DNA of 64,000 nucleotides. It comes from a virus. Taxonomy: Duplodnaviria > Caudoviricetes. The stretch lies in the IMG/VR virus record IMGVR_UViG_3300037797_000133, positions 14,597-78,596 of that record. One strand, written 5' to 3'. The notes below the pieces were generated by a model, which was not told the DNA's origin, searched no databases, and was given only the letters and a program-made list of their open reading frames with translations. The translations under genes were made by a program, and so were the position numbers. Below, piece after piece: positions 58-43,486 of the stretch (position 1 is the stretch's first letter; each line of letters starts with the position of its first letter).

Positions 58-249
58 GTGAACGGTGGACCCGATCGCCAGGACCGCCCAGTGGCTGGTC
101 CCTCTGGTGTGTCTGGCCTGCGTCGTGGCTGGTCTCGTCGATGCCATGGTCGGCCGTTAGCTGACGTGGCGCTCCTGCTCGTCGGCCCGGTCGCCGTCAT
201 CGGCGTGGCCGCCGTCGCCTACCTGATCGCCACGGGGCGGATCCGATGA
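58..249 (+). CDS. small membrane protein
   Basis: C-terminal hydrophobic helix (ALLLVGPVAVIGVAAVAYLIA); ATGA overlap with next gene. Confidence 0.5.
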   Translation: MNGGPDRQDRPVAGPSGVSGLRRGWSRRCHGRPLADVALLLVGPVAVIGVAAVAYLIATGRIR

Positions 250-395
250 TCGTCCTCGACCACGACCCCCTAACCGACGAGGACCGCACCCTGGCCGGCC
301 CCGTCGAGCGGCGCATCCTCGCTGCGATCGACGAGTCGGAGCGGCTCGCCGCCGAGGAGGACGCCTGGCGGCGTCTGGCAGGGGAGGCGTCGTGA
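246..395 (+). CDS. hypothetical protein (49 aa)
   Basis: Read manually: MIVLDHDPL...GEAS*; coupled start/stop overlaps on both sides. Confidence 0.6.
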   Translation: MIVLDHDPLTDEDRTLAGPVERRILAAIDESERLAAEEDAWRRLAGEAS

Positions 396-568
396 TCGGC
401 CTCGCCTTCGGGGCGGTCCGTCACCGGATCGGCCTCCTCGTCGTCATCGCGGTGATCATCGTCTTCGCCACCGGCCTCCCCCTGCGGGTCGAGGAGCACT
501 TCGCCCCCGTCGACAACCCGTACGACGACACCCCCACGACCACCGAACCGGAGGTGGCATCACCGTGA
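392..568 (+). CDS. small single-TM protein, possible spread (Spd)-like accessory
   Basis: Read manually: MIGLAFGAVRHRIGLLVVIAVIIVFATGLP...; GTGA overlaps; precedes DUF2637 and TraB-like genes. Confidence 0.55.
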   Translation: MIGLAFGAVRHRIGLLVVIAVIIVFATGLPLRVEEHFAPVDNPYDDTPTTTEPEVASP

Positions 569-1638
569 GCAGCGCCAACGGACAGCGCTACGCCGAAGGC
601 GACATCTTCACCGTCTGGCGCGACCAGACCGAGGAGTACGTCGAGGAAGAGGGCAGGGTCGCCGCCCGGCGCACCACCACCGAACGGCGCCCCCGTACGC
701 CCACCGCCGCCGAGGGACGGGAGGCCGCAGGGTCGCTCCTCTTCGACGGGATCACCGCCCTCGGCATCGCGGTCCTTGGGCTCATCGGCTTCTACGTGAG
801 CTTCTCGACGGTCCGCGACTCGGCGGTCGGCCAGTCGTTCGGGTCGAAGGCGTGGGCGCTCCCGCTCACCGTCGACGCCGGCATCGCCGTCTTCACCGCC
901 CTCGACCTCCGCATGGCCGCCCACGGCATGCGCGCCCGCTGGGTGCGCGTGTTCCCGTGGGCGCTCAACGGCATCACCGTCTACCTGAACGGCGCCGAGC
1001 AGGCCACGTGGGCCGGCAAGATCGGCCACGCCGCCCTGCCGTTCATGTGGATCGGCGCCGTCGAGGCCGTCGCCCTCATCGTGAAGCGTCGCACCCAAGG
1101 CCCCAAGCCTGAGGTCGACCAGATCCCCCGGGCCCGCTGGCTGCTCGCCCCCGGCCCGACCCTGCTGCTGTGGCGGCGCATGCGCCTGTGGGGCGTCACG
1201 TCCTACGACGAGGCGCTCGAGCGCGAGTGCGACCGTCGCCTCGTCCGGGCCCGTCTCGCCCAGCAGCACGGTTCGCTGCGCAAGCTCCCGGCCGAGACCA
1301 GGGAGCTGTACCGGATGGGCAAGCTCCGGGCCACCGACGTCGTCCTGGAGGTGCCCGCGGTCGTCACGGTCGACCCGCCGGCCGCTCCTGCGGCCCCTGA
1401 GGCGCCCGTGGCGGCTCCGACGCTCGTCGCCGTCCCTGCACTGCCGCCGGCCGATGAGGCCCGCCGGGAGGACGTTGAGACGGCCGCCCGCCGGATCGTC
1501 CGCGACCAGTTCGACGGCAAGTGCCCCGGCCGCCCCACCCTCACCGCCGCCCTCAAGGCCGACGGACACACGATCAGCAACGCCGACGCCGCCGACCTGG
1601 TGCGCCGGCTGAAGGCCGAAGGGAACGACAGTGCTTGA
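565..1638 (+). CDS. DUF2637-type membrane protein of actinomycete plasmid/AICE transfer regions
   Basis: About 4 TM helices, AWALPLTVDAG, IPRARWLLAPGPTLLLWRRMRLW motif, Pro/Ala linker, C-terminal HTH-like segment. Confidence 0.75.
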   Translation: MSSANGQRYAEGDIFTVWRDQTEEYVEEEGRVAARRTTTERRPRTPTAAEGREAAGSLLFDGITALGIAVLGLIGFYVSFSTVRDSAVGQSFGSKAWALPLTVDAGIAVFTALDLRMAAHGMRARWVRVFPWALNGITVYLNGAEQATWAGKIGHAALPFMWIGAVEAVALIVKRRTQGPKPEVDQIPRARWLLAPGPTLLLWRRMRLWGVTSYDEALERECDRRLVRARLAQQHGSLRKLPAETRELYRMGKLRATDVVLEVPAVVTVDPPAAPAAPEAPVAAPTLVAVPALPPADEARREDVETAARRIVRDQFDGKCPGRPTLTAALKADGHTISNADAADLVRRLKAEGNDSA

Positions 1639-3898
1639 CCGCGAGGACAAGTCGCTGCGCCGCATACTCGAGCGCCGTAGTGGCCGGTACGTCAACGACG
1701 ACCTCGCCGACGACATGCTCGGCCACATGGGCGTCGGCCCCGTCGCCGCCACCGTCGTCGAAGACGTCGACTGGGACGAGGAGCTGTCCGAGCTCGAAGA
1801 CGTCATCGACGTCGAGCCGATCGACCCGCCCGGCGATCTGCCCGACCGCGGGGCACCGAAGCTGCCCCGGGCGGACCGGGAGTCCCGGCCGGTTCTGCCC
1901 GCCTGGCTCGACGCCCCGAAGGCAGCGGTCAAGCAGCGCTGCCGGGACCTCAAGCACGACGTGAAGTTCCACGCCACCCGGGCGCCGTCCTACGCCGGTC
2001 GGGCCGTGAAGTACGCGCCCGCTGGCGTGGGCCGCACCTACCGGGGCCTGTACCGCTGGGCGACCGACTACGAGTCGGCGCCCGCCCGGTACCTGGAGGC
2101 GCAGCGGGGCAACACGTCCGCGTACCTGGCGCTCGCTCAGCAGCGAGACGAGCGGGTGCATGACCGGCGGTTCCTGGCGATGGGTCTCGGCTGCCTACTG
2201 CCGCTCACGGTCCTCGCCGTCTGGTTCGGGCTGACCGGACCGGAGCTGCCCGGACAGACCCGCCTCGTTGCCTTCGTGGCGGCCCTTGTGACGGTCGTGG
2301 TCCTCGGCCATATCGGGGCACCGGAGGACAAGCCGATCGTCGAGTCGGCCGCCGCCGGCCCGGCACGCCGCCGGATCACCTGGTCGATGCTGCGGGCCGC
2401 GTTCGAGGCCGAGGGCGTGAAGCTGTCCAAGGCCCGCCCCGACGGCGCCCCCGCCGACCCGGCTCGAGAGATGACGCTCGTCCGGGAGATCTCCCGCGAC
2501 GCCCGAGACACCGGCTACGTGGCGACGATCGACCTGCCGTTGGGCAAGACCGCGGCGGACGCCATGGCGAAGCGGGACAAGATCGCCTCCGGGCTGTCCG
2601 TCTCCCGGGCCCAGGTGCACATCACCCCCGACGCGGACAGCGAGCGGCGCATCAACATCTACGTCGCCGACGTCGACCCGTTCACCCGCCCTCGCCGGGT
2701 CTCCCCGTTGGCGTCGCTGCGCCAGCTCGACTTCTGGGAGGGCTTCGACTTCGGCACCAACGCCAAGGGCGAACCGGTCCGGCTCAAGCTCGTGTGGACG
2801 CACCTGCTCGTCGCCGCCATCCCCCGGATGGGCAAGAGCTACGCCGCGCTCATCGCCGCGTGCGCCGCCGCCCTCGACCCGCGGGTGCGGATCATCATCC
2901 TCAACGGCAAGAAGGGCGCCTGGCGTCACCTCGCCAAGGTCTGCCACCGCTACGTGGCCGGCGCCCGCGACGAGGCCGTCCTCTACGTGCTGCGCACCCT
3001 GCGCGAGTGCAAGGCCGACATCGACGCCCGCGGCGACCGCATCGAGGAACTCGACGAAAAGTACGGCTACGGCGACAAGCTCGTCCCGCAGGTCGCCTCC
3101 GACCCGAGCCAGGGCATGCCCCTCGTCGCGATCTTCATCGACGAAGCGCAGCGCTACATCGGGCACGGACAGTACGGCGGCGAGATCCTCGCCCTCTTGA
3201 AGGACATCGCCAAGGTCGGACCCTCGGCCGGCTACATGCTGATCGTCGCTGTCCAGAAGCCGACCGGCGACGTCATCGACACCGACCTCCGGGACAACAT
3301 GGGGCTCCGCTACGTGCTCCGCATGAAGACCTCGGCGGGTTCGAAGGCGGCGCTCGGCGAGATCACCCCGGGCTTCGACCCGGTGCAGTTCTCGGACAGG
3401 CACAAGGGCGTCGGGGTGCTCGACGGGTCGGACAACGAGGAAGAGTCGCTCGACGGCGCGGACATCGACATTGTCCGCACGGACAGCCTCGACATGGCGA
3501 TGGTCGAGGAGATCGCGGACAGGGCCCATGCTGTCCGGACAGGCATGAACAAGCTGTCCGGCTACGCAGCGGGCGACGACCTGTCCGAGGAGTCGACGCC
3601 GTTCCTGCTGCTCGACCACCTGTCCGACGCCATCAAGCTCGGCGAGGACAAGGTGTGGTCAGCCGATCTGATCCGCCGCATCGCGGACAGTCACCCCGAG
3701 GCGTACGACGGCTGGTCGCCCGACGACCTGGCCAACCACCTGAAGCCGTACGGGGTCGAGACGATCCAGATCAGCCGCACCGTCACGGACCCTGAGACGG
3801 GCGTGAAGCGCCAGAAGAACTGGCGTGGCGTCGCCGTCGCGGACCTCACCGAGGCCTACAACCGGGAGATGGCGAAGCGCGCCGCGCTCGGCCAGTGA
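1631..3898 (+). CDS. traB: FtsK/SpoIIIE-family DNA translocase, Streptomyces TraB/AICE type
   Basis: Two N-terminal TMs, Walker A variant LLVAAIPRMGKS, Walker B AIFIDEAQ, VAVQKP, LRYVLRM, C-terminal wHTH-like domain (KVWSADLIRRIA...LKPYGVETIQI...NWRGV). Confidence 0.85.
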   Translation: MLDREDKSLRRILERRSGRYVNDDLADDMLGHMGVGPVAATVVEDVDWDEELSELEDVIDVEPIDPPGDLPDRGAPKLPRADRESRPVLPAWLDAPKAAVKQRCRDLKHDVKFHATRAPSYAGRAVKYAPAGVGRTYRGLYRWATDYESAPARYLEAQRGNTSAYLALAQQRDERVHDRRFLAMGLGCLLPLTVLAVWFGLTGPELPGQTRLVAFVAALVTVVVLGHIGAPEDKPIVESAAAGPARRRITWSMLRAAFEAEGVKLSKARPDGAPADPAREMTLVREISRDARDTGYVATIDLPLGKTAADAMAKRDKIASGLSVSRAQVHITPDADSERRINIYVADVDPFTRPRRVSPLASLRQLDFWEGFDFGTNAKGEPVRLKLVWTHLLVAAIPRMGKSYAALIAACAAALDPRVRIIILNGKKGAWRHLAKVCHRYVAGARDEAVLYVLRTLRECKADIDARGDRIEELDEKYGYGDKLVPQVASDPSQGMPLVAIFIDEAQRYIGHGQYGGEILALLKDIAKVGPSAGYMLIVAVQKPTGDVIDTDLRDNMGLRYVLRMKTSAGSKAALGEITPGFDPVQFSDRHKGVGVLDGSDNEEESLDGADIDIVRTDSLDMAMVEEIADRAHAVRTGMNKLSGYAAGDDLSEESTPFLLLDHLSDAIKLGEDKVWSADLIRRIADSHPEAYDGWSPDDLANHLKPYGVETIQISRTVTDPETGVKRQKNWRGVAVADLTEAYNREMAKRAALGQ

Positions 3899-3903
3899 TC
3901 CGT

Positions 3904-4068
3904 CGCTACGCGTAGCACCCCCAGCCGCTACGCGTAGCACTAGTGCTAGCACCTGAGACTGGTTCTCACCTGGGCCTTAGCGGGCTAGCACCAGATCTGC
4001 GACTCCGCCGAAACCGTGCCGGGGGGCCGGTTCTCGGTGGGGTCGCAGCAGCCGCTACCCGCTACGCG
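3904..4068. repeat. repeat cluster directly downstream of traB (candidate clt locus)
   Basis: CGCTACGCGTAGCAC at 3904 and 3926; palindrome GTGCTAGCAC 3943-3952; TAGCAC at 3913, 3935, 3947, 3986; CGCTAC again near 4053 and 4060. Confidence 0.6.
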
Positions 4069-4088
4069 ACCCCACCCAGGAGACCGCC

Positions 4089-4505
4089 ATGCACGTCCAC
4101 TACGAGATCTCCCAGAAGCGCTCCACCGAAGGCCACCTGCGGCTCACCGCCGAGCAGGAGCACGACTACAAGAAGGCCCGCACCGACGAGCAGCGCAAGG
4201 CCGCCGTCCGGGCCGCGATCCTCGCCCACGCCGACGAGACCGACGACTGGGCATACGACGACCTGCTGACCCTGTCCGCTGTCCCCGACGACGCCGACCA
4301 CCCGCTGCTCGTCGAAGCCGACAAGCTGCGGACAGGCCGACTTGTCCGCCGCGAGGAGCGCCTGCGGACAGCGCTGCTGTCCGGCGGGCTGTCCGAGGAG
4401 GACGAGCTGCGGCTGTCCGCCACCCGCGCTGTCCTGTCCGACCGCGGCGAGATCCTCGAAGACTGCCCGGGCCTCCCGGACATCGAGCACCTCGACTGGG
4501 CCTGA
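4089..4505 (+). CDS. hypothetical protein
   Basis: AGGAGA RBS, GC3-rich coding pattern, 138 aa. Confidence 0.75.
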   Translation: MHVHYEISQKRSTEGHLRLTAEQEHDYKKARTDEQRKAAVRAAILAHADETDDWAYDDLLTLSAVPDDADHPLLVEADKLRTGRLVRREERLRTALLSGGLSEEDELRLSATRAVLSDRGEILEDCPGLPDIEHLDWA

Positions 4506-4563
4506 CCAGACCCTGTCCGTTTGCCCGACACAACCCGGGCCCGCGGGGCTACCGTCGGGAGGC

Positions 4564-4749
4564 ATGCGGTACACGGCAGCGGTGAAGACGGCAGAGCGAC
4601 TCCCGCGCCGCACGCTCGAGCAGCGGGCGGAGCGGCTGCTGCGGGTGTGGGAGAACCTCGGCGACAAGATGTCCCGCGGCGACCGGATCAAGCTCGCCGC
4701 CGCACGGGAGGCGCTCAACCTTCCGCCGCTCTACGGGCTCGAGCCCTGA
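4564..4749 (+). CDS. hypothetical basic protein
   Basis: GGAGG RBS before ATG 4564; ends at terminator hairpin. Confidence 0.65.
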   Translation: MRYTAAVKTAERLPRRTLEQRAERLLRVWENLGDKMSRGDRIKLAAAREALNLPPLYGLEP

Positions 4750-4798
4750 ACGCCCTGAGGCCCCGCACCGGACGTACCGGGCGGGGCCTCAGGGCGTT
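4749..4798. terminator. bidirectional hairpin terminator between convergent operons
   Basis: 18-bp perfect stem AACGCCCTGAGGCCCCGC / GCGGGGCCTCAGGGCGTT. Confidence 0.8.
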
Positions 4799-10826: not shown

Positions 10827-12260
10827 GTGGAGGTGCTCCCGCGGGCCGCTGCGATCTACACGAGGATCTCGCTCGACCGCTCCGGCGAGGGCCTCGGCGT
10901 GGCCCGCCAGGAAGCCGACTGCCGACGTCTCGCCACCGAACGTGGCTGGCACGTCCACCGTGTGTACCCGGACAACGACCTCAGCGGTAGTGCCCGCGGT
11001 GTCACCCGCCCCGAGTACGACCAGCTCTGCGCCGACATCGCTGCCGGGATCGTCGATGCCGTCATCTGCTGGGACCTCGACCGGCTCACCCGCCAGCCCC
11101 GCCAGCTAGAGGAGTTCGTCGAGCTGTGCGACCGGGCCGGCGTACGTCACCTCGCTACCGTGTCCGGCGACATCCACATCGGCACCGGCGACGGCCTCCT
11201 CGTCGCGAGGATCAAGGGCGCGGTGGCGGCCGAGGAGGCGCGCAAGATCCGCCAGCGGGTCGCTCGCAAGCAGCAGGAGCTGGCCGAACGGGGTCTGCCC
11301 GGTGGCGGCGGCAAACGGCCACTCGGCTTCCAAGCCGACCGGATCACCCACGACCCCACGGAGGCAGCGGCCCTCCGCTACGCCGTCGATGTCGTGCTTA
11401 CCGGTGGCACCCTGGCTGACGCCGCAGCGGACGTGTCGTCGCGCCTCGCCCGCCCCGTCGATCCGTCCTCGCTGCGCCGAGTGCTCGTGTCGCCTCGCCT
11501 CGCCGGCCTCCGCCAGCGGCACGGCGCGATCGTCGGCGAGGCGAAGTGGGCGCCGATCATCGAGCCGGAGACCCAGGAACGGCTACGCGCCACGCTCGCC
11601 GGCAGGTACCGCTACAGCCGCCCCTACCGGGCCCACCTCCTCGGCGGCATCGCCCGCTGCGGCGCCCCAGGCTGCGACGCCAAGCTCCACGCCCAGGTCG
11701 TGAAAGGCCGACGGGAGGGTCTCGTCCAGTACTCGTGCCGGCGGGCCCGCGGCGGCTGCGGCCGAGTCGCCGTCACCGCCGACATCCTCGAAGGCGAGGT
11801 GCTGGCCGAGGTGCAACGCTGGCTACAGCAGCCCGAGTTCGCCGCCGCCATCGCCGCCGCCGTCGACGGCGACCCGCAGGGCGACCTCGACGACCTCGCC
11901 GCACAGGTCGTAGCGGCGGAGGCCGCGCTCGAGTCGCTCGCCCGGGAACGTCAGGAACTCGGCCTGGAGGTGGCGGAGTGGAAGGCGTTGCGGGAACCGA
12001 TCGCAGCCCGGCTCGACGCCGCCCGCCGCACGCTCAGCGAGGCCCGGCAGCGCAGCGGCCCGACACCGTTCTCAGGCGTCACCCCGGCCGAGCTCGCGGA
12101 GCTATGGCCGGCGCTGGCCGCCGACCCGGCCACGATGCGAGAGCTGATCCGCCTGCTCGTGGGCGAGATCCGGGTACGCCCCGTAGGCAAGGGCTGGCGA
12201 AGCGCAGTGCGTCAGCGGGTGCAGGTCGTGCCGGCATGGAGTGTCAGTGGCAGGGGCTGA
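10827..12260 (+). CDS. int: large serine recombinase (phage integrase)
   Basis: Resolvase motif AAIYTRIS, DLDRLTR, recombinase domain, Zn ribbon CGAPGC...YSCRRARGGCG, coiled coil. Confidence 0.95.
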   Translation: MEVLPRAAAIYTRISLDRSGEGLGVARQEADCRRLATERGWHVHRVYPDNDLSGSARGVTRPEYDQLCADIAAGIVDAVICWDLDRLTRQPRQLEEFVELCDRAGVRHLATVSGDIHIGTGDGLLVARIKGAVAAEEARKIRQRVARKQQELAERGLPGGGGKRPLGFQADRITHDPTEAAALRYAVDVVLTGGTLADAAADVSSRLARPVDPSSLRRVLVSPRLAGLRQRHGAIVGEAKWAPIIEPETQERLRATLAGRYRYSRPYRAHLLGGIARCGAPGCDAKLHAQVVKGRREGLVQYSCRRARGGCGRVAVTADILEGEVLAEVQRWLQQPEFAAAIAAAVDGDPQGDLDDLAAQVVAAEAALESLARERQELGLEVAEWKALREPIAARLDAARRTLSEARQRSGPTPFSGVTPAELAELWPALAADPATMRELIRLLVGEIRVRPVGKGWRSAVRQRVQVVPAWSVSGRG

Positions 12261-15325: not shown

Positions 15326-15705
15326 TGGCCCACCGCGAAGACCCGATCATCGTGGCGATCGCTCAGGCCATCGACCACGTCCGCAAGGGCAACGCCGGGG
15401 CGGCCGTCGACACGCTGGAGGCGGCCGACCCGGACGGCTTCATGTCCACCTACGCGATCGCTGGCGGTATCGCCCGCCTCGGGATCACGAGTGGGCCGGT
15501 CACGGTCACGTCGTTCGGCTCGACGCCGGGCCAGGACGAGTACGGGGCTTCCCTCGGTGCGTTCATCGCTGCCGCCGGCAACGGCGACGTCGAGGGGGCG
15601 CGGGCGGTCTACTTCGCTGACGCCTTCGTCACCGGCGAGATGATGGGCGACCTCCTCATCATCGCTAGCCAGCTCGTCGATGGTGCTTCCGGGGCGGTCG
15701 GCTGA
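15325..15705 (+). CDS. hypothetical protein
   Basis: TGATG coupling, GGAGG RBS. Confidence 0.65.
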   Translation: MAHREDPIIVAIAQAIDHVRKGNAGAAVDTLEAADPDGFMSTYAIAGGIARLGITSGPVTVTSFGSTPGQDEYGASLGAFIAAAGNGDVEGARAVYFADAFVTGEMMGDLLIIASQLVDGASGAVG

Positions 15706-16661
15706 TGGCCCTCGCCAAGGACCTGTCCCACCTGCCGACCCCGGCAGCCACGAAGGACGAGCCGTTCGCCCCGGACCCGGAGCCGACGTTCCTCCTGCCG
15801 TACCTGGACGACCTCGTCGCCCGGAACGCAGCCGAGGGCCAGCGCCCGCACGCCGTCGCGGGCACCCGGTTCCGCCACTCGATGGCCGGCAACTGCTCGA
15901 GGGCCGTCGCCTACTACGCGCTCGGCGTCGACGAGTCGAACCCGATGGACCTGTGCGGCGTGGTCGTCACCGGCAACGGGACGGCGAAGCACGACGAGAT
16001 CCAGGACGTGCTCATCCGTGAGGTCGACGGCCTCACCGTCGAGGTGCCCTGCCAGGTCGACGACTTCGACGGGTCCGGCAACGCCGACGGCCTGCGCGTC
16101 ATCGACGGCAAGCGCATCTGCTGGGAGCACAAGAACGTCGGCGGGTTCGCCTTCAAGATGGCGATCGGGGAGCGCTCGGCGCCGCAGGGCCCGAAGCACG
16201 ACCACATCGTCCAGGCGGGCCTGAACGCCCTCGCTCTGGGTGCTGACACGGTGGTCATCACCTACCTGACGTGGGAGGCGGTGAGCGTCCAGGCCGCGGC
16301 CCGGAAGCACATCGACGGCCCGAACCGCATCGCCGCCCAGTGGACGATCGAGCGGGACGTCTGGGAGCCGCTGGCCCTCGATGAGGTGAAGCGCATCAAG
16401 GCGATCCTCGCCATGGTCGACGGCGGCACGCTCCCGGCCCGCAAGATCCCGGACCCGCAGCTGCCGAAGGGCGCGGTCATCGTCGACCCTTCGTCGGCTC
16501 GGTGGGAGCAGCACAACGCCGACGGCGAGATCCTCGATACCGGATCTACTTGGTCGTGTTTCTACTGTCGCTGGCAGGACCTCTGCGTTCGCACGCCCGC
16601 CGGCCGTGCCCCCGTCGAGACGCTCGTCGAGATCGGCGCACTCCCCGAGGTGGCGGCATGA
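15705..16661 (+). CDS. Cas4/AddB-like PD-(D/E)XK exonuclease with Fe-S staple
   Basis: N-terminal NCSRAVAYY, GNADG...WEHK, HIVQAGLN, C-terminal CFYCRWQDLC (1+3 Cys). Confidence 0.8.
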   Translation: MALAKDLSHLPTPAATKDEPFAPDPEPTFLLPYLDDLVARNAAEGQRPHAVAGTRFRHSMAGNCSRAVAYYALGVDESNPMDLCGVVVTGNGTAKHDEIQDVLIREVDGLTVEVPCQVDDFDGSGNADGLRVIDGKRICWEHKNVGGFAFKMAIGERSAPQGPKHDHIVQAGLNALALGADTVVITYLTWEAVSVQAAARKHIDGPNRIAAQWTIERDVWEPLALDEVKRIKAILAMVDGGTLPARKIPDPQLPKGAVIVDPSSARWEQHNADGEILDTGSTWSCFYCRWQDLCVRTPAGRAPVETLVEIGALPEVAA

Positions 16662-17638
16662 CCCGGCGCCCCGTCCCCGTGCGCTCCCTCGCGACGCGCC
16701 TGCCCGACGCCGGCCGCATCCGCATTGGCGTGAAGGTCCCGGTCCCGGGCAAGGACCGCAACGGCAACCCGAAGTCCCGGCCCGAGAAGATCGACCGGTT
16801 CCGCTTCACGAGCGCCGACCGGACGGCCCTCGACCAGGTGGCCGCCATCTACGGCGGCCAGGTCACCGAGTGGGTCGAGCCGAAGGCCGCGCCCGGCCAG
16901 TGGCAGGTCATCACCGACGCCCGCGAGATCCGGATCGCTCTGCCGCCGGACCCGCTGGGCAACACGCCCGTCTACGAGCTGTGGGCCGGTGGCGGCTGCC
17001 AGCGGCGCTGCGACGGCGAGACCGTCGAGATGCTCACCAACGGGCCCGACGGCCTCGACCTCCAGACCGCTCCGTGCATCTGCGACCGCAAGCAGGCGCT
17101 CGAGTGCTCGCTGCACACCCGCCTGTCGGTGCTGCTGCCCGAGGTCCGGTTCGCCGGCGTGTGGCGGCTGGACACGAAGTCGCAGAACGCCGCGGTGGAG
17201 CTACCCGGGATGGTGGAGCTGATCCGGTCGCTTCAGGACCGGGGGATCGTCCGGGCGACGATGCGCGTCGAGTGGCGCAAGCAGGTCCAGGCCGGCCAGA
17301 CCCGCGAGTTCGCCGTCCCGGTCCTCGGTGTCGACGACACGCTGAACGAGCTCGCGGCCGGCTCCGCCCGGCTGGGTGCCCTGTCGTCCGCTGCTGCGCC
17401 GGAGCCGATGGCCGAGCTGAACGCCGGCCCCGACCTCGACGACGAGGCAGTCGAGGCCGAGATCGTTGAGCCGACCATCTCGCCCGACGACGCCGAGTCG
17501 ATCAAGGCCCGGGTCAACGCGGGAGGCCCGGCCGTCATCAAGGCGTGGCGTACCCAGTTCGGTGTGGCCCCTGCGGATCTGCCGGCTGAGCGGTACGACG
17601 AGGCGCTCGCCTTCCTCGCCGAGGGGGTGACGGCGTGA
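16658..17638 (+). CDS. phiC31/phiBT1 gp3-like recombination directionality factor family protein
   Basis: GRIRIG...FRFTS...AAIYGG...ELWAGGGCQRRCDG...PCIC...C, matching the gp3-like pattern from memory; serine integrase in the same genome. Confidence 0.7.
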   Translation: MTRRPVPVRSLATRLPDAGRIRIGVKVPVPGKDRNGNPKSRPEKIDRFRFTSADRTALDQVAAIYGGQVTEWVEPKAAPGQWQVITDAREIRIALPPDPLGNTPVYELWAGGGCQRRCDGETVEMLTNGPDGLDLQTAPCICDRKQALECSLHTRLSVLLPEVRFAGVWRLDTKSQNAAVELPGMVELIRSLQDRGIVRATMRVEWRKQVQAGQTREFAVPVLGVDDTLNELAAGSARLGALSSAAAPEPMAELNAGPDLDDEAVEAEIVEPTISPDDAESIKARVNAGGPAVIKAWRTQFGVAPADLPAERYDEALAFLAEGVTA

Positions 17639-20511: not shown

Positions 20512-21379
20512 GCTCGAGCACCTGCACCCGTTGCGAGCTCGAGCTCGAGGCCGGCGACGAGCTCACGCGGGACGGCCTGCCGTACTGCTCGGACCGGTGC
20601 GCCGAGCTCGGCCCGAAGCCGGTGGTGCTCGAGGGGCAGCGCGCCCTGTTCGAGCTCGAGGCGACGTCGTGAGCACGCTCGAGCGAGTCGAGCTCGAGGT
20701 GGGCTACGCCGCCCCGGCCATGCCGGACTCGCCGGTGATGGCCGCCTCCAGATGGCCCACGAATGCCGAGCTCGTTGCCGACGTGGCGCGCCTTGGATGG
20801 TTGCGCTCAAGCGACACGGTGCTCGACCCGACGTACGGCCGGGGCCGCTGGTGGGCCAAGTGGCGGCCCGCCCGCCTCGTCGCGACCGACATCCGCCTCC
20901 GTGGAGCTCGAGACGCACGACCCCATGACGCCCGCTGCGACTTCCGTGCCCTGCCGTTCCGCTCGAGCTCGTTCGACGCCGTCGCATGGGACCCGGCCTA
21001 CGTCGCAGCCGGCGGCAGGAAGACGACGGGCATGGTCGACTTCCACGACCGGTACGGGATGGACGACGCCCCCGCCACGCCGGCCGAGCTCCAAGCCCAC
21101 AACAACGCCGGACTGCCCGAGCTCGTCCGCGTGCTCAAGCCCGGCGGGATCCTGCTGGCGAAGACGCAGGACTACGTGTCGTCCGGGAAGCTCTGGCCGG
21201 GCACGCACTACACCCTGACGGCCGCCCTGGAGCTCGAGCTCGAGCTCGTCGACCGTCTCGAGCACATCGGCTCCCCGCGCCCGCAGCCGCCCCGGTCTCG
21301 AGCGGACGGCCAGCCGGTGCGCCAGCAGCACAGCCGCCGAAATCTGTCGACGCTGTTCGTGTTCCGGAAGCCGCTCGAG
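20482..21379. repeat. dense cluster of GAGCTC/CTCGAG hexamers
   Basis: Hand count of 16 GAGCTC and 15 CTCGAG in about 900 bp, in several reading frames. Confidence 0.85.
20508..20672 (+). CDS. small zinc-finger protein
   Basis: CTRC...YCSDRCA. Confidence 0.6.
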   Translation: MSSSTCTRCELELEAGDELTRDGLPYCSDRCAELGPKPVVLEGQRALFELEATS

Positions 21380-21421
21380 CGACGCCGTCGCCAGCCCTCC
21401 CTGCTGGAGGTGCCGGCATGA
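20669..21421 (+). CDS. amino (m6A/m4C) DNA methyltransferase
   Basis: SAM motif VLDPTYGRG, catalytic FDAVAWDPAY (DPPY variant), LVRVLKPGG. Confidence 0.8.
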   Translation: MSTLERVELEVGYAAPAMPDSPVMAASRWPTNAELVADVARLGWLRSSDTVLDPTYGRGRWWAKWRPARLVATDIRLRGARDARPHDARCDFRALPFRSSSFDAVAWDPAYVAAGGRKTTGMVDFHDRYGMDDAPATPAELQAHNNAGLPELVRVLKPGGILLAKTQDYVSSGKLWPGTHYTLTAALELELELVDRLEHIGSPRPQPPRSRADGQPVRQQHSRRNLSTLFVFRKPLERRRRQPSLLEVPA

Positions 21422-24521: not shown

Positions 24522-24784
24522 CCGCTCGCACCCTCCTCGCCACCTGCGCCCTCGCTCTGGCCGCGTGCTCGTCCTCGAGCGCGCCGCCGGCAACCACGAC
24601 CACCACCGAGCCCGAGACCCGCTTCTGGGTGGGCCACGCCGGCGGCAACGAGACCCAGGTGTGCGTCGAGCACCCGGACGGCGACGACACCACCACGACG
24701 TGCGCCCCCTGCTACTGGCCTGACGGGGACCCGTCGGCCGGCTCGTGGGTGGAGTGCGAGCGTTTCGACGAGGAGGGGTCGTGA
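24518..24784 (+). CDS. lipoprotein
   Basis: Lipobox ALAAC, Ser/Thr linker, four further Cys. Confidence 0.7.
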   Translation: MTARTLLATCALALAACSSSSAPPATTTTTEPETRFWVGHAGGNETQVCVEHPDGDDTTTTCAPCYWPDGDPSAGSWVECERFDEEGS

Positions 24785-25362
24785 GCGTCGACGTCTTCTC
24801 CGAGCTGTCGCCCCCCTACGCCACGATCGTGGCGGACCCGCCGTGGCCGTACCCCGAGGGCTGGCCTGGCTGGGGAATGACTGCGGCCGAGCGACGCGCC
24901 CTGCCCTACACGTCAATGACCGTTGACGAAATTGCAGCCCTGCCTGTTCGATCGCTCGCAGCGCGCGAGGGCTACTTGTTCCTGTGGACGACGAACCGCT
25001 ACCTGCGGGCGTCGTTCGACGTCCTCGATGCCTGGGGGTTCACGTTCCGCCAGGCGGTCGTGTGGTGCAAAGACCCGCAGGGTGAGGGCCCGGGCGGCAT
25101 GTTCGCTCAGACCACCGAGTACGTGATGGTCGCCCAGAACATCGGTCCTCGGTCCCATGCCCGCGGCAAGCGCACTAGTGGCAGCCGTGAGGCCTCGTCG
25201 TGGTTCAAGGCGCCGAAGGCGGCGCATAGCGCCAAGCCGCCGTCGTTCATGGACGCGGTCGAGCGTGTCGCCCCGGGCCCGTACCTGGAGCTGTTCTGCC
25301 GCCAGCCGCGTTTCGGATGGGACACCTGGGGCTGGGGACATGAGTTCGGGGAGGCCTCGTGA
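24781..25362 (+). CDS. MT-A70 family adenine methyltransferase
   Basis: IVADPPW, YTSMTVDEI, LFLWTT, WGF...WCK, HSAKP, YLELFCR. Confidence 0.9.
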   Translation: MSVDVFSELSPPYATIVADPPWPYPEGWPGWGMTAAERRALPYTSMTVDEIAALPVRSLAAREGYLFLWTTNRYLRASFDVLDAWGFTFRQAVVWCKDPQGEGPGGMFAQTTEYVMVAQNIGPRSHARGKRTSGSREASSWFKAPKAAHSAKPPSFMDAVERVAPGPYLELFCRQPRFGWDTWGWGHEFGEAS

Positions 25363-26153: not shown

Positions 26154-26638
26154 GCACGACTCTGAAGGCCAGACCCACCACCTACAACGGGATCAAGATG
26201 CGGTCCCGGCTCGAGGCCGGCTACGCGCAGTGGCTCGACGGGTGGGATGTCGAGTGGACCTACGAGCCGCAGTGCTTCGCCGCGGCCGACGGCCAGTACC
26301 TCCCCGACTTCCGACTCGACGGCGTCGTGGTCCCGATCCGGCCGGGAGCGGCTGTCTACGTCGAGGTGAAGCCGTCGCTCGCCTCGCTCGACATGGATGC
26401 CCTGTGGCGCCGGATGTCGATCATCAAGGGCAGCGACCCGGACTGCGTCCTGTTGCTCCAGGTGCCAGGGGGGAGGGGCCTGGTTGCCGGTCGCTCCCGC
26501 ATCACGGACGAACCGGTGTGGGCCGACGCGACGTGGCTCTTCGGCAGCTTCAACGGTGAGAAGTCGAAGCTCACGCTCAGTCAGCCGATCGCCCCGCATG
26601 ACCTCCCTTGGCCCGATGGCTATTGGGAGGGCACCTGA
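26150..26638 (+). CDS. PD-(D/E)XK endonuclease-like protein
   Basis: YNGIKMRSRLEA...YEP...YLPDF...VEVK. Confidence 0.75.
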   Translation: MSTTLKARPTTYNGIKMRSRLEAGYAQWLDGWDVEWTYEPQCFAAADGQYLPDFRLDGVVVPIRPGAAVYVEVKPSLASLDMDALWRRMSIIKGSDPDCVLLLQVPGGRGLVAGRSRITDEPVWADATWLFGSFNGEKSKLTLSQPIAPHDLPWPDGYWEGT

Positions 26639-27759
26639 TGGCACGGAGCTTCGGCCGCACCCTGTCGTCCCTGTGGGGCGACGAGAGCTGGTGCAGCCTC
26701 ACCCCGGGCGCCCAGCGCCTCCACATGATGCTGACGTCACAGCGGGCCATGACGCTCGCAGGGACGATCAGCCTCACCGCCAAGCGGTGGACGCGCTACT
26801 CGGCCAACACGACTGTCGCCGACATCGAGCGGGCGCTCTACGAGCTGTCCGACGCCGGCTGGGTGATGCTCGACGAGGAGACCGACGAGGTCGTCGTGCC
26901 GGCCGTCCTGAGCGACGACCTGAACGCCGGCCGCCTGTCCTCTCAGGTGGCCAAGGGCTTCTGGTCGGCGTGGGACGCCATCGACTCGCGGCACCTGCGG
27001 AGGGTGGTGGTCGGTGCGCTCGGTGACGATGTGTGGGCGAAGCTCGAACCGCTCGCCCCCCTCGATGCGGTGCATTACCGCAGGTCGTCCCCAATCGATA
27101 CGGAACCGCCTCCCCGAACCGATAGGGAGACGCACCCCCCTACCGAGAGTGAAGCGTCGCCCCCAGTCGAGACGGATCGTTCCAGTCGAATCGAGTCGAA
27201 CGGCAGGGCCCCTATCGATTCCACACGCGCCCGTCTCTCGACTGTCGATCTTCGATCTTCGATGGTCGATGGTCGATGCGACTCGTCGGCACCCGAGGAC
27301 GACCCCGAACCCGTTGAGGTCGTCGAGACGTCGCCGCCCGCCCCGGCGGTCGTCGACCCGACGCTCGCCCACGCCCGGCGGCTGTGCGTTCTGCTGGCCG
27401 ACTCCATCGCCGATCGGGACTCCAAGCGCCCGAGCATCTCCGATGCGTGGGTGCGGGACATGGAGCGCCTGATGCGCATCGACGGCCGTGCGCCGGAGGA
27501 CGTCGAGCGGGTGATCCGCTGGCTCGACCGTGGCGCCGACGACGTCGCCTCGTTCTGGCAGCCGAACGTCCGCTCGCCGAAGAAGCTCCGCGAGAAGTGG
27601 GACCAGATGCGGGAGCAGCACCGGCGCAGCACCGTCGGGCGCGGTACCCGGGCAGCGAGAGACGACCGGGCGTGGGAGGACGGGCACACGCTCCTGCGTG
27701 CCGTCGGCTCCGACGTGAACCCGATCGACCTCCTCACGAGCCGGAGGAACGGGCAGTGA
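26638..27759 (+). CDS. phage replication initiator / replisome organiser
   Basis: N-terminal wHTH-like region, low-complexity linker with DNA repeats, C-terminal DVERVIRW...FWQPNVRSPKKLREKWDQM. Confidence 0.75.
   Translation: MARSFGRTLSSLWGDESWCSLTPGAQRLHMMLTSQRAMTLAGTISLTAKRWTRYSANTTVADIERALYELSDAGWVMLDEETDEVVVPAVLSDDLNAGRLSSQVAKGFWSAWDAIDSRHLRRVVVGALGDDVWAKLEPLAPLDAVHYRRSSPIDTEPPPRTDRETHPPTESEASPPVETDRSSRIESNGRAPIDSTRARLSTVDLRSSMVDGRCDSSAPEDDPEPVEVVETSPPAPAVVDPTLAHARRLCVLLADSIADRDSKRPSISDAWVRDMERLMRIDGRAPEDVERVIRWLDRGADDVASFWQPNVRSPKKLREKWDQMREQHRRSTVGRGTRAARDDRAWEDGHTLLRAVGSDVNPIDLLTSRRNGQ
27245..27279. repeat. five tandem 7-mers TCGATNN in the initiator linker (candidate origin)
   Basis: TCGATCT TCGATCT TCGATGG TCGATGG TCGATGC. 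Confidence 0.55.
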
Positions 27760-28319
27760 ACCTCGACGACGCAATGACCTGCCTGTGGCTCACCAAGTCC
27801 CACTGGTCGAACTTCAACGTGCTTAGCGGCGAGAAGCTGGCTCTTCAGGCCGGCGCCTGGCTCGACGTCCTGGGCGATGTCGACCTGGCCGACGTCCGGG
27901 CGGCCCTCGCCGAGCTGGACGTGGAGGGTCTCGAGTTCGCCCCCACGCCGGGCCAGGTCCGCCAGACGATCCTGCGGCGACGCGGGGAGCTGGCTCCGGA
28001 CACCGACCAGGCGCTCACGGAGGTGCTGGACAAGTACCGCCGCGGCTACGACTACACGACGGGAAGGCCCGACCAGGTCTCGCACCCGGCGATCGACGAG
28101 GCGATGCGCACGCTCGGTGGCTGGCGCCAGGCCGGCCAGATGCCCACCGACGAGCTGCGCCGGCAGTTCCGGTACGCCTACGAGCCTGCGGCCAAGCGGG
28201 CGGACCGCGAGGCGTCTGCGCCGCCGGCCGCGCCTACCGGCATCGACCGGTCGGCCGAGGTGCTTGCCCTCCCGACGCCGGAACGGCCGACGTTGCCACG
28301 GCACTACGAGGAGGCGTGA
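27756..28319 (+). CDS. helicase loader/inhibitor-like protein
   Basis: AWLDVLGDVD...VRAAL...EFAPTPGQVR; directly after the initiator. Confidence 0.6.
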   Translation: MNLDDAMTCLWLTKSHWSNFNVLSGEKLALQAGAWLDVLGDVDLADVRAALAELDVEGLEFAPTPGQVRQTILRRRGELAPDTDQALTEVLDKYRRGYDYTTGRPDQVSHPAIDEAMRTLGGWRQAGQMPTDELRRQFRYAYEPAAKRADREASAPPAAPTGIDRSAEVLALPTPERPTLPRHYEEA

Positions 28320-30560: not shown

Positions 30561-30719
30561 ATGACGAACGAAGAACTCCGCCGGATCGCCGGAGACTCCT
30601 ATACCGACATCGTCGCCGCCGGCGCCGACCCGCGGGCACACGCTCGGCTCGTCGACCGCCTCGGCGCCGACGAAGCCGAACACTGGATGTGGGTCGCTGG
30701 CCAGTGCCCGACGTCGTAG
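30561..30719 (+). CDS. leaderless hypothetical protein (52 aa)
   Basis: Read manually: MTNEELRRIAGD...CPTS*. Confidence 0.6.
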   Translation: MTNEELRRIAGDSYTDIVAAGADPRAHARLVDRLGADEAEHWMWVAGQCPTS

Positions 30720-31750
30720 ACCTCTACGGCGGCCCCGGCGGATGGGCCGAAGGCCTCCGCTCCCTCGGCCTCACCGACTTCGGCATAGACCGCGACCAGG
30801 CCTGTTACACCACCCGCCGCGCAGCGGGCCACGACGCCATACTCGGCGACGTCTCCGAGCTCGACCCCACCCGCTACTCCGCGTCCGGGCTGATCGGTTC
30901 GCCGCCCTGCCCGCTTTTCTCCGACGCCGGACTCCGCCACGGCGTGGCTGCCACCGACCTACTGGCTGGCGCCATCGGTGACGTCGCCCGCGGTCGGGAT
31001 CCCCGCGCACAGCTTCGCCAGCAGGTCGCCGACCTCGTCGAACCCGCCATCTCTGCCGCTCACCCCGAGTGGGATGCCGGCACCCTCCTACTCGACGTCA
31101 CCACCCGCACCCGGGCCGAAGCCGAACGCCTCGCCGCCGAAGCTGCACAGGTTCTCGAGCCGGCCCGGTGGGCTCACTCCCTCCACCCCGAGTGGATAGC
31201 GCTGGAACAGGTGCGGGCCGTTCTGCCCATCTGGCAGGCCTACGCCGCCGCACTCGGCGAGCTCGGCTACGACACCGCCACCGGGATCGTCGACGTCGCC
31301 GATTACGGCGTTCCGCAGCACCGCCGTCGGGCCGTCCTCGTCGCCAGCCGGGTCCGACCTGCCCGCCTCCCGATCCCTACCCATGGGCCCGGTCGGATCC
31401 CGTGGGTGTCGATGGCCACGGCTCTCGGGTGGAAGGCTGGCCGAGTCGGGTTCCCGCGCCGTGACGACGGCTCCGGCACCGCCACCGACGACGGGTACAG
31501 GGATCGCGACTGGTGGCCAGTCGACGGGCCGGCGCCGACCCTCACCGAGAAGGCCCGCTCCTGGTCCGTCGTTCTCTCCTCCGGTCCTGACGCCGGGATG
31601 TCCCGCCCGCTAGAGCTCGCCGAGGCCCTCATCCTGCAGGGGTTCCGGGCCGACTACCCGTTGCACGGCACCCGGACGGATCGGTTCCGTCAGGTCGGCG
31701 ACGCGGTCCCGCCCCCCCTCGCCGCGGCGCTCGTCGGGGTGGTGACGTGA
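30704..31750 (+). CDS. C5-cytosine DNA methyltransferase
   Basis: DLYGGPGG, GSPPC, EQV (ENV variant), YGVPQHRRR, QVGDAVPP. Confidence 0.92.
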   Translation: MPDVVDLYGGPGGWAEGLRSLGLTDFGIDRDQACYTTRRAAGHDAILGDVSELDPTRYSASGLIGSPPCPLFSDAGLRHGVAATDLLAGAIGDVARGRDPRAQLRQQVADLVEPAISAAHPEWDAGTLLLDVTTRTRAEAERLAAEAAQVLEPARWAHSLHPEWIALEQVRAVLPIWQAYAAALGELGYDTATGIVDVADYGVPQHRRRAVLVASRVRPARLPIPTHGPGRIPWVSMATALGWKAGRVGFPRRDDGSGTATDDGYRDRDWWPVDGPAPTLTEKARSWSVVLSSGPDAGMSRPLELAEALILQGFRADYPLHGTRTDRFRQVGDAVPPPLAAALVGVVT

Positions 31751-32956: not shown

Positions 32957-33532
32957 ATGACGAGTGACCCACAGCGTTGGGAGGACTGGGCTGCATGCGA
33001 AGGGCTCGACCCCGGCCTGTGGTTCCTTGACAAAGGACACGTCCTCAGCCCGAAGGCGAAACAGACGTGCCACGACTGCCCCGTCTTCTTCGCCTGCCTG
33101 GAGCAATCGCTCGGCCGACGTGAGACCCACGGCGGTTGGGCCGGCGCCGCGCCCCGCACCCGCCGGGTCCTCTGGCACGCCTGGGTCGCCCGCACCCACG
33201 ACTACGACCCGGCTTGCACCCGCAGCTCGTGTTGGTGCCGTGTCGCCGAGACGCACCGCGAGTCGCTGATCGAGTCGAGCACGCCGCTCCAGCTGAACGG
33301 GCCGGGCGCCCGATGCGGCAAGCGCAGCACGTACGCCCGTGGCTGCCGGTGCCTCGCCTGCCGCACGGCGATCTCACCGACCGGGGTGCGGATGCGTGAC
33401 GCCGGCATCGACATCCTCGCCTGGTTCGAACGCTGGTTCGACGGCGACGCCCGCTACGACGACAGCGTGATGCCGCTCGTCCGGCGCATGGCCAAGTACG
33501 AGATCACCGACGGCGAAGCCGCAGCGGCGTGA
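32957..33532 (+). CDS. whiB: WhiB-family transcription factor with extra Cys-rich C-terminal module
   Basis: WAAC...WF...AKQTCHDCPVFFACL...GGWAG; then CG..STY..GCRCLAC. Confidence 0.85.
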   Translation: MTSDPQRWEDWAACEGLDPGLWFLDKGHVLSPKAKQTCHDCPVFFACLEQSLGRRETHGGWAGAAPRTRRVLWHAWVARTHDYDPACTRSSCWCRVAETHRESLIESSTPLQLNGPGARCGKRSTYARGCRCLACRTAISPTGVRMRDAGIDILAWFERWFDGDARYDDSVMPLVRRMAKYEITDGEAAAA

Positions 33533-34095
33533 GCATCTTCGACGGTCTCGCCCTCGGCACCTACCGGCTCGTGTGCATCGACCCGCCGTGGCCAGCCGAC
33601 ATCACTCAACGCCTCGGCGGCGCCGGCCGTCGACGTCGCAGCCGGGCAGCCGACCACTACGCCACGATGAGCCTCGACGACATCCGGGCGTTGCCGATCA
33701 GCGACCTCGCCGCCCCCGACGCCTGGTGCGTCCTGTGGGTCACGAACGCCGTCATGACCCGCGGCGACCACGCCGGCCTGCTCGAGGGGTGGGGGTTCCG
33801 TCCGATCACCGCTGTCACCTGGTGCAAGCCGGGCGGCGGTGGGTTGGGCGTCTACTTCCGTGGCGCCACAGAGCACGCCCTGATCGGCGTCAGGGGCACC
33901 GGCACCGTGCCGGCTACGCCGTGGCCCTCCACCTGGTTCCAGGCGGCGAGAACGCATCACAGCGCCAAACCCGACGCGCTCATGGACATCCTCGAGCTGG
34001 TCGGCCCGACACCACGGGTCGAGCTGTTCCAGCGCCGGCCCCGGTTCGGGTGGGATGGCTGGGGCGCCGGCTACGAGTCGCAGGTGTCGGCGTGA
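33529..34095 (+). CDS. MT-A70 family adenine methyltransferase (second copy)
   Basis: CIDPPW, YATMSLDDI, LWVT, WGF...WCK, HSAKP, VELFQR. Confidence 0.9.
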   Translation: MSIFDGLALGTYRLVCIDPPWPADITQRLGGAGRRRRSRAADHYATMSLDDIRALPISDLAAPDAWCVLWVTNAVMTRGDHAGLLEGWGFRPITAVTWCKPGGGGLGVYFRGATEHALIGVRGTGTVPATPWPSTWFQAARTHHSAKPDALMDILELVGPTPRVELFQRRPRFGWDGWGAGYESQVSA

Positions 34096-42412: not shown

Positions 42413-43486
42413 GTGGCCGAGTACATCTACGACATCGTCGACCCGGTCGAGCTGACGGGGTACGTCCGCACGGCCACCGAGGACGCCTTCCCGTTCGCGG
42501 ACCTGCTGCCGATCCTGCCGACGACCGACATCGAATACGAGCTGACCCAGCTCGACCACCGTGGCGGCCCTGTCGCCCGGTACCGCGGCTGGGACGTCCC
42601 GGCGCAGCTCGGCCGCCGGCCCGGCGTGTCGACGATCACCGGTGAGATCCCGCCGCTGAGCCTGGCCTACGACCTCCGTGAGAAGGAGATCAACCAGGTC
42701 AACGCCCTGCGGACGGGTCTCGGTGACCGATACGACCAGCGGGTCGTCGACAAGATCCTCGACGACGCCGTCAACGCCGCTCTCGGCGTGATGAACCGGC
42801 TGTCGTGGGCGTGCGCCGAGCTGCTCACCACCGCACAGGTGACGCTCACCGACGCCACCCCCGGCGTGTCGGCCGGCAACGCCGTGAAGGCCAAGTTCGC
42901 GACGCCGCCCGCGCAGCTCGCCGTCGCCCCCCTCGGCGCCCTCTGGTCGAACCACTCGACCTCGGTGCCGCTCGACGACCTCCTCGCCTGGGAGACCGCT
43001 TTCGCCGACAACAACGGCGGGCTGCCCCCCGACGCGTGGATCATGTCGAAGAAGACGCGCAGCCACCTGGCCCAGAACACCCAGGTCCGGGCCCAGATGC
43101 TGTCGGCCCCCGCTGGCTACGTCGCCACCCCGAACGACCTGTCGGCGGTCATGGACCAGTACGGCATCTCCGGCCGGCTCGTCGTCTCCGACATCCGCCT
43201 GCCGCTGATGACCGACGACACGGCGTCGGGCCGGGCGATCCCGGAGAACTACGTGATCGCTGTCCGTTCAGCTGCCCTCGGCAACACGCTGATGGCTCCG
43301 AGCTCGAACGCGACGACGCTCGCCGCTGGCGCCCCGGCCCGGTCGGTGCTGGCCTCGCAGCCGGGCATCACCGCCTTCCAGGTCGCCGATGTGAACCCGG
43401 CGAAGATCACGACTGTCGCCGACGCCGTGGCGCTCCCGGTCCTCCGGGATCCGAACGCCCTGTTCGTCGCGATCCCGCACGCCTGA
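42413..43486 (+). CDS. major capsid protein (lambda gpE-like)
   Basis: 357 aa after the decoration gene; C-terminal ALPVLRDPNALFVA pattern. Confidence 0.85.
   Translation: MAEYIYDIVDPVELTGYVRTATEDAFPFADLLPILPTTDIEYELTQLDHRGGPVARYRGWDVPAQLGRRPGVSTITGEIPPLSLAYDLREKEINQVNALRTGLGDRYDQRVVDKILDDAVNAALGVMNRLSWACAELLTTAQVTLTDATPGVSAGNAVKAKFATPPAQLAVAPLGALWSNHSTSVPLDDLLAWETAFADNNGGLPPDAWIMSKKTRSHLAQNTQVRAQMLSAPAGYVATPNDLSAVMDQYGISGRLVVSDIRLPLMTDDTASGRAIPENYVIAVRSAALGNTLMAPSSNATTLAAGAPARSVLASQPGITAFQVADVNPAKITTVADAVALPVLRDPNALFVAIPHA

Follow-up and report, generated by a model that had tools for sequence, protein, structure and literature searches.

The virus record IMGVR_UViG_3300037797_000133 (IMG/VR) is the complete genome of a temperate tailed phage, and it carries at positions 58-4798 of the stretch analysed here (the window, 64,000 nucleotides; bases 14,597-78,596 of one 78,596-bp virus contig) a compact cassette that encodes a TraB-like translocase for double-stranded DNA (dsDNA) and a polytopic membrane protein of the DUF2637 family, together with a repeat array that resembles the clt site read by plasmid TraB proteins. 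We give an even chance to the interpretation that this cassette is a TraB/clt-like system that, directed by clt, pumps the phage genome in circular form through septa or sites of hyphal contact. An earlier note on this DNA, prepared from its letters and open reading frames (ORFs), had proposed a complete tailed phage with a Streptomyces-type TraB conjugation module, and that interpretation is, overall, partly supported by the analysis presented below.

A TraB-like ATPase with a predicted winged helix

The gene at 1631-3898 (plus strand) encodes a 755-residue protein that profile searches, BLAST and a structure model assign as a TraB-like dsDNA translocase. Its N-terminus is disordered and is followed by a transmembrane hairpin at residues ~181-230, a motor of the FtsK fold and, at the C-terminus (residues ~660-752), a winged helix; the hairpin corresponds to hydrophobic 19-mers at residues 181-199 and 212-230, which the model shows as long helices. 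With the experimentally characterised TraB of pSVH1, the protein shares 29% identity across 348 residues of the pre-motor and motor region (E 2e-31), and it also matches PHROG 1358, annotated as 'FtsK/SpoIIIE-like' (E 6e-28). The closest TraB proteins are 76%, 46% and 39% identical (loci L002, L097 and L098, respectively), all from uncultured assemblies. The motor contains a Walker A motif, AIPRMGKS (A-x4-GKS, residues 396-403), and a Walker B motif, FIDE (hhhhDE, residues 500-505). The protein aligns over its full length with 12 relatives, and G401, K402, D504 and E505 are invariant in the 13 sequences. Comparison with the 76% relative gave a ratio of nonsynonymous to synonymous substitution rates (dN/dS) of 0.33 by the NG86 method, which is crude at this level of GC content at third codon positions; the value is consistent with purifying selection on TraB.

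The AlphaFold model of the whole protein, made with 13 homologues, has a predicted local distance difference test score (pLDDT) of 71.6, and its top Foldseek matches are the FtsK motor domains 6t8o and 2ius (E ~1e-12, ~390-430 aligned columns); TcpA, a coupling protein of conjugation, comes next. For the last 108 residues, a model made with 32 homologues reaches a pLDDT of 84, with helices (H) and strands (E) in the order H-E-H-H-H-E-E-H, and the best Foldseek/VIA matches of this C-terminus are all winged-helix DNA binders (PadR, Rex, Orc/Cdc6 and MarR). These matches are modest (E 0.009 or worse, Z 5-6), and the predicted C-terminal winged helix is supported at the level of fold class only.

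A conserved repeat array follows traB

The non-coding interval between the traB stop codon and the next gene (3899-4088) holds a clt-like array of about ten copies of an 8-mer close to YGCTASSC. Two inverted pairs follow the stop, then come a palindrome and single copies, and a tandem pair stands just before the ribosome-binding site of the next gene. Within this arrangement, CGCTACGCGTAGCAC occurs in two copies at 3904 and 3926, the palindrome GTGCTAGCAC lies at 3943, GCTAGCAC at 3984, and the tandem CGCTACCC-GCTACGCG at 4051-4067. Words of the type GCTAC/GTAGC/GCTAGC number eight in the 200 nt after the traB stop, against at most four elsewhere, which makes this the densest such cluster in the genome. 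Furthermore, a k-mer enrichment method that picks up the clt repeats known from pSVH1 (GACCCGGA, at the end of traB) finds lineage-specific, CTA-containing words 3' of traB in most relatives.

The array layout is kept in L002 and L097, the two nearest relatives that possess the array, and in L098 the lineage-specific 8-mer is found further downstream. The 8-mer itself differs between lineages, being GCTACGCG in this phage and in L002 and GCTGCTAC or GTAGCAGC in L097 and L098. The putative recognition helix changes in parallel with it (PDDLANHLKPY versus VDRLRAALRDY and VDTLRSHLRDA), a correspondence that covers two lineages only. Together, these observations make the array a likely candidate for the docking site (clt) of TraB.

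The cassette is translationally coupled and includes a recurrent membrane partner

The cassette belongs to a rightward, co-directional gene train that starts ~3 kb before the window, at L001:11522 (L001 denotes the numbering of the source record and covers the 14.6 kb upstream of the window), and ends at a hairpin at 4749-4798. Five ORFs within it (58-249, 246-395, 392-568, 565-1638 and 1631-3898, all on the plus strand) are joined by GTGA or ATGA start-stop overlaps. The first encodes a 63-residue protein with one C-terminal hydrophobic helix, and its GTG start overlaps the stop of the preceding gene (GTGA); L002 has a 74-residue gene at the matching position. The second, coupled through ATGA, encodes a 49-residue acidic soluble protein, and the third, coupled through GTGA, a 58-residue protein with one transmembrane helix. 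The earlier note had described three small membrane or hypothetical genes, a DUF2637-type protein and a TraB-like FtsK ATPase with a C-terminal winged helix, linked by this coupling into one operon. All of these genes are found where it placed them and the coupling is plain at the gene junctions; the description needs amending in that the gene train starts well before the window.

The fourth ORF encodes the 357-residue DUF2637 protein (PF10935, E 4e-23), which also matches PHROGs 29003 and 32569, two families without an assigned function, and whose gene immediately precedes, and overlaps, that of the TraB-like protein. This gene overlaps or abuts traB in each of the three closest relatives (L002, L097 and L098), and the pairing occurs at 20 genomic or plasmid loci as well. 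DUF2637 neighbours TraB both in the integrative and conjugative elements of actinomycetes (AICEs) and, on a linear plasmid of Streptomyces, within the transfer region, and it can therefore be regarded as a recurrent partner of this TraB clade. At L003:7826-8476 and 13 other AICE loci (14 of the 96 loci surveyed; a Streptomyces AICE subset), a gene for a GGDEF diguanylate cyclase stands between DUF2637 and traB; the phage cassette does not have it. One 90-kb Streptomyces plasmid match (H93) was considered as a plasmid-phage and rejected, being an ordinary linear plasmid with GntR, TraB, DUF2637 and ParAB.

Downstream of the array, a conserved 138-residue soluble protein is encoded at 4089-4505 (plus strand); it is also found in L002 and L097, has no Pfam match, and gave no usable match in a Protein Atlas search. 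The last gene of the train (4564-4749, plus strand) encodes a 61-residue protein, likewise with no Pfam match. The train then meets a leftward train at a perfect-type hairpin (4749-4798) with 25-nt arms, a folding energy of -63 kcal/mol and a z-score of -8.3, in keeping with the earlier suggestion of a terminator shared by convergent transcription units. This hairpin is probably a bidirectional terminator without a U-tract, and a consensus terminator scan did not flag it because it has no T-run.

Upstream in the same train, at L001:13336-13665 (931-1260 bases before the window), lies a 109-residue ORF that is a paralogue of the Walker-B/post-Walker-B segment of TraB (31% identity over 71 residues, E 4e-7) and that also matches traB of L006 and of L009. 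This ORF may have been left behind by a former TraB gene, or it may encode a small regulatory subunit. The third ORF after it (L001:14128-14388) opens with a Walker-B-like sequence, VVVAIDECQQW, followed by two transmembrane helices; its BLAST similarity is not significant.

Relatives of the TraB-like protein lie in AICEs and in several phage contexts

In representative actinomycete genomes, TraB relatives number more than 511, at ~29-38% identity. The nearest of them (~38%) are in Lentzea, Pseudonocardia, Actinoplanes and Micromonospora, members of the Pseudonocardiaceae and Micromonosporaceae, and those of Streptomyces are ~31% identical. The term 'Streptomyces-type' is accordingly a loose one for a protein that does belong to the TraB family and is intact. 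To survey gene context, flanking genes of 96 loci were clustered and the cluster representatives annotated. A tyrosine integrase flanks 67 of the 96 loci, GntR 45, HTH_17/Xis 40, Prim-Pol 37, DUF2637 23 and DUF3631/RepAM 22. By gene content, the best 80 of the >511 genomic relatives lie mostly in canonical AICEs, and the ATPase groups with AICE and plasmid TraB, as the earlier note would have it, most of the 96 loci having AICE-type neighbours.

A maximum-likelihood tree unites the proteins of this phage, L002, L097 and L098 in a single clade with strong support, and other phage-context TraB sequences branch at at least three separate places among the AICE sequences. A scan of viral contigs with the single protein as query was without matches, and the same scan with an alignment as query gave TraB relatives. 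Phage structural genes lie no more than 10 kb from some of these relatives, namely a tape measure gene (L004), tail genes (L009, L010) and a terminase gene (L013). In the last of these (IMG/VR; L013:566-8950), the TraB relative and small upstream genes lie on the opposite strand between homologues of the portal and large terminase genes, and the transfer cassette has there been inserted into the packaging module. Several other 'viral' TraB contigs look like plain AICEs and were left uncounted as phage evidence. Among them is L005 (IMG/VR UViG 2728369518_000002), whose TraB does not differ from the one encoded at a chromosomal locus of Actinoplanes italicus (L032) and has GntR, Xis and a tyrosine integrase as neighbours, a case that calls for caution in counting phage-borne TraB from viral catalogues.

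The Logan contig SRR16123996_2693 (47.3 kb), which bears a 76%-identical TraB, also carries a 52%-identical capsid gene and genes for a decoration protein and a tail tube protein, so that the linkage of the cassette to related virion genes is seen in two independent assemblies. In this cassette-bearing relative, TraB identity (76%) exceeds capsid identity (52%). The closest structural relative, an 80.8-kb contig with 78% capsid and 53% portal identity, has no TraB and no DUF2637 in the 96% of it examined, and it has a tyrosine integrase (L103:5148-6266) at the place of the serine integrase found here. The cassette is missing from this relative and would therefore be dispensable for the phage; its distribution suggests an exchangeable accessory module that has been passed on horizontally.

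The cassette resides on a complete phage genome

The first 151 bases of the contig are repeated exactly as its last 151 bases (window 63850-64000), and the contig represents a genome of ~78,445 bp that is either a closed circle or terminally redundant. This end overlap places the cassette on the same closed molecule as the terminase, portal, capsid, tape measure and endolysin genes. The large terminase subunit is encoded at 34374-35852 (PF17289, PF03237), the portal protein at 37141-39027 (PHROG 64), a major capsid protein of the lambda E type at 42413-43486 (PHROG 29, E 4e-45; PF03864 in precomputed annotation), a 1,339-residue tape measure protein at 53138-57157 (PHROG 1533, E 2e-94) and the endolysin at 61998-62960 (PHROG 880, E 1e-17). 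A replication module with an O-like initiator and a P-like helicase loader occupies 26638-28319 (PHROGs 3171, 391 and 109); all of these genes are on the plus strand. Profile searches also identified tail proteins and a WhiB-like regulator. Self-trained gene calling predicts 153 tightly packed genes, and the GC content is uniform across the genome (69-73%). The contig is a complete temperate siphovirus genome of ~78.4 kb, with full virion, lysis, replication and lysogeny gene sets on one circularly closing molecule; this bears out the earlier claim of a complete tailed phage and rules against a separate AICE or host chromosome upstream of the window. No isolated phage has a capsid protein more than 29% identical to the one encoded here, and the lineage is uncultured. 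The host would be a high-GC, probably mycelial, actinomycete.

Two integrases of different classes are encoded on this one genome. A large serine recombinase (10827-12260, plus strand; PF00239, E 4e-26, with Zn_ribbon_recom) lies beside the immunity region, and profile searches place a tyrosine integrase at L001:2809-3900, upstream of the window on the same molecule. Together with a Gp3-like recombination directionality factor (RDF; 16658-17638, plus strand; PF18897, E 9e-37), they point to an integrating lifestyle. The ORFs of at least 180 residues outside the structural arm were scanned for replication, partition and regulatory genes, and neither ParA nor ParB was found among them. The earlier note saw no AICE Rep and no tyrosine integrase in the window; no Rep was found among the scanned ORFs, and the genome does encode a tyrosine integrase, outside the window, in addition to the serine integrase inside it. 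The tyrosine integrase gene adjoins a ~1-kb non-coding island with tRNA-Pro(CGG) and tRNA-Trp(CCA), the whole region spanning L001:1589-3900.

Other genes may concern defence and regulation. Just past the lysis end, on the minus strand at L001:891-1514, is the gene of a 207-residue protein that has the N-terminal DUF262/GmrSD_N domain only and may be a defence or anti-defence gene. Also on the minus strand, at L001:9636-11066, a 476-residue fusion of an XRE-type helix-turn-helix (HTH_31) and a complete peptide deformylase domain is encoded, in divergent orientation to the beginning of the train that leads up to traB. Early-region genes at window positions 15705-16661, 20669-21421, 24781-25362, 30704-31750 and 33529-34095 encode a Cas4-like exonuclease (PHROG 1706) and at least four DNA methyltransferases (Methyltransf_11-like, MT-A70, C5 and PHROG 359 types), which suggests heavy investment against restriction.

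Proposed function and alternative explanations

From the gene content, predicted folds, synteny, conservation of the array, linkage to phage genes and mosaic distribution, we infer DNA binding, pumping, transfer and the timing of expression. The cassette, which sits in the non-structural arm, would have been captured from the TraB transfer systems of AICEs or plasmids. By analogy with TraB and clt of pSVH1, TraB hexamers in the membrane would most likely use their winged helices to dock on the repeat array of the phage genome in its circular form, whether excised or replicating, and would pump this genome as dsDNA across septal cross-walls or hyphal contacts, with DUF2637 and the small membrane proteins presumably forming or anchoring the channel. 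The outcome would be a virion-independent route for the phage beside infection.

Several observations weigh against this scheme. The TraB-like protein has no Pfam match even at E 10, FtsK_SpoIIIE (PF01580) included, and its match to the NCBIfam model NF041214 plasmid_TraB (E 2e-14) scores 53 bits against an equivalog cut-off of 800; by these profiles it is only distantly related to the modelled plasmid TraB and no equivalog of it. Among 50,697 records of isolated phages, tblastn with this protein gave no match at E 1e-5. DUF2637 was considered as a counterpart of SpdB2 and rejected, since BLASTP against pSVH1 SpdB2 gave E 6 or worse and SpdB2 has no DUF2637 match; the two share only their polytopic membrane character and their position upstream of traB, and the 'Spd' label used in the earlier note is positional only. 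Unlike most AICE relatives, the cassette has no GntR-type Kor/TraR regulator beside it. The array directly precedes the downstream gene and could alternatively be its operator. Finally, the TraB fragment ORF at L001:13336-13665 indicates past rearrangement or decay in this arm, and the closest structural relative does without the cassette in the 96% of its contig examined.

Some of these observations would fit inert or decaying cargo, acquired through illegitimate recombination with an AICE or plasmid and of no use to the phage. The distribution is mosaic, the relative with 78% capsid identity lacking the cassette and the one with 52% capsid identity having a 76%-identical TraB; phage-context TraB arises at at least three separate tree positions; and the Walker-B fragment, the missing cognate GntR regulator and the lack of an AICE Rep among the scanned ORFs could be read in the same way. 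However, every cassette ORF is intact and translationally coupled, the catalytic motifs are invariant and dN/dS is 0.33. Furthermore, the layout of the non-coding array is kept across relatives whose TraB is only 46% identical, which is not expected of inert DNA, and we consider cargo without function unlikely. We think it similarly improbable that the pump serves other ends, whether as a mimic of FtsK or SffA acting on host septation, sporulation or chromosome segregation, for bringing prophage DNA into spores, or for excluding or mobilising other elements. FtsK-like genes of actinobacteriophages have been discussed as manipulators of host development (PMC10117723; bioRxiv 10.1101/2024.02.16.580700), and this phage does encode a WhiB-like regulator. 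Yet the protein groups with AICE and plasmid TraB and not with the FtsK-like proteins of isolated phages, where the tblastn search had no match, and the TraB-type winged helix, accompanied in cis by a repeat array of its own, suggests that the protein reads the DNA of the element that encodes it.

Two further explanations concern the molecule itself. A separate AICE, nested in the phage genome or lying beside the prophage and excising and transferring alone, could account for the presence of two integrases, the tyrosine one adjoining tRNA-Pro and tRNA-Trp, which are typical AICE targets, and homologues of this integrase do lie beside TraB in L006 and L012. Against this, the tRNA/int-proximal region has no direct repeat longer than 15 nt elsewhere in the genome, the matches of 13-15 nt being at chance level; RepSA, RepAM and Prim-Pol are absent from the scanned ORFs; the tyrosine integrase gene is 12 kb from traB, at the usual post-lysis place of a phage integrase; and composition is uniform. 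A nested element is thus very unlikely. An assembly chimera of an AICE or plasmid fragment with a phage would have in its favour that this is an uncultured virus contig with only trace reads in public runs, of which one sediment metagenome contains 6% of the sampled words, in low-depth 151-nt pieces at 97-98% identity; joints that appear at 80% likeness are noise. It is hardly credible for a contig that closes on itself, with the cassette 16 kb and 60 kb from the ends amid phage-like gene trains, and with an independent assembly from another run joining the same cassette to related capsid and tail genes.

Implications

A broader proposal, which we advance only tentatively, is that integrating tailed prophages of mycelial actinomycetes move their own dsDNA genomes between hyphal compartments or mating mycelia without virions, by means of a swappable TraB/clt/DUF2637 cassette that is traded between phages and AICEs and whose recognition helix and 8-mer co-evolve. 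If true, such prophages would have dual-mode transmission, by infection and by a conjugation-like process. If the cassette works, the virus would gain a second route of spread that needs neither capsid nor receptor, and the line between phages and conjugative elements would be blurred; this would bear on the movement of prophages and their cargo genes in soil actinomycetes and on the evasion of receptor-based or abortive defences. Furthermore, the system has few parts (a single pump, site and membrane partner), and with an 8-mer that apparently co-varies with the recognition helix it provides a manageable model in which to study how motors of the TraB type select their DNA.

Comparison with known systems

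In pSVH1, efficient transfer requires no protein other than TraB, which assembles into a hexamer in the membrane, reads clt via its C-terminus and pumps double-stranded plasmid DNA; Spd proteins complex with it for spread across cross-walls. The phage cassette resembles this system (and those of pIJ101 and pSG5) in having a membrane-anchored FtsK-fold ATPase of ~750-770 residues with a C-terminal DNA-recognition domain. As in pSVH1, short repeats lie at or after the 3' end of traB, and coupled small membrane proteins and one polytopic protein are encoded upstream, the pSVH1 order spdB3-spd79-spdB2-orf108-traB resembling that of the cassette. The polytopic partner, however, is SpdB2 in pSVH1 and DUF2637 here, the repeat is GACCCGGA there and ~YGCTASSC here, no GntR TraR/Kor was found beside the cassette, and the replicon is a 12-kb plasmid with rolling-circle replication there and a 78-kb tailed phage here.

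The nearest TraB relatives, often accompanied by DUF2637, are in AICEs with Int, Xis, Prim-Pol/RepAM and GntR, and the phage, like an AICE, appears to integrate via site-specific recombinases, for which it has tyrosine and serine integrase genes. It differs from AICEs in that no RepSA, RepAM/DUF3631, Prim-Pol or GntR repressor was found among the scanned ORFs, its replication genes being O-/P-like, and in that it is ~5 times larger (78.4 kb versus ~9-24 kb), with full virion genes, lysis genes and lambda-like replication. The term 'phage/AICE hybrid', used in the earlier note, is accordingly an overstatement, as only the transfer cassette is AICE-like.

A tailed phage with a tra function is already known from the Streptomyces plasmid-phages pZL12/phiZL12, which has a Streptomyces-type conjugal transfer system (Zhong et al., 2010, J Bacteriol 192:3747), and pFP4 (Chen et al., 2012, Plasmid 68:170). 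As described in papers that cite them, both likewise combine tailed-phage virion genes and a tra translocase on one replicon. They are described there as extrachromosomal plasmid-prophages with ParAB, whereas here no ParAB was found among the scanned ORFs and two integrases and an RDF are encoded. The isolated actinophages phiC31, VWB, Geonosis, Mandalore and Naboo carry FtsK-like and SpdB2-like genes, and to that extent also have phage-borne homologues of DNA-translocation or spreading proteins; the present phage differs from them in its TraB-type winged helix, its cis repeat array and its DUF2637 protein. What is new here is the combination of an integrating prophage with a TraB of the AICE clade, a DUF2637 partner, a co-varying repeat site and modular exchange.

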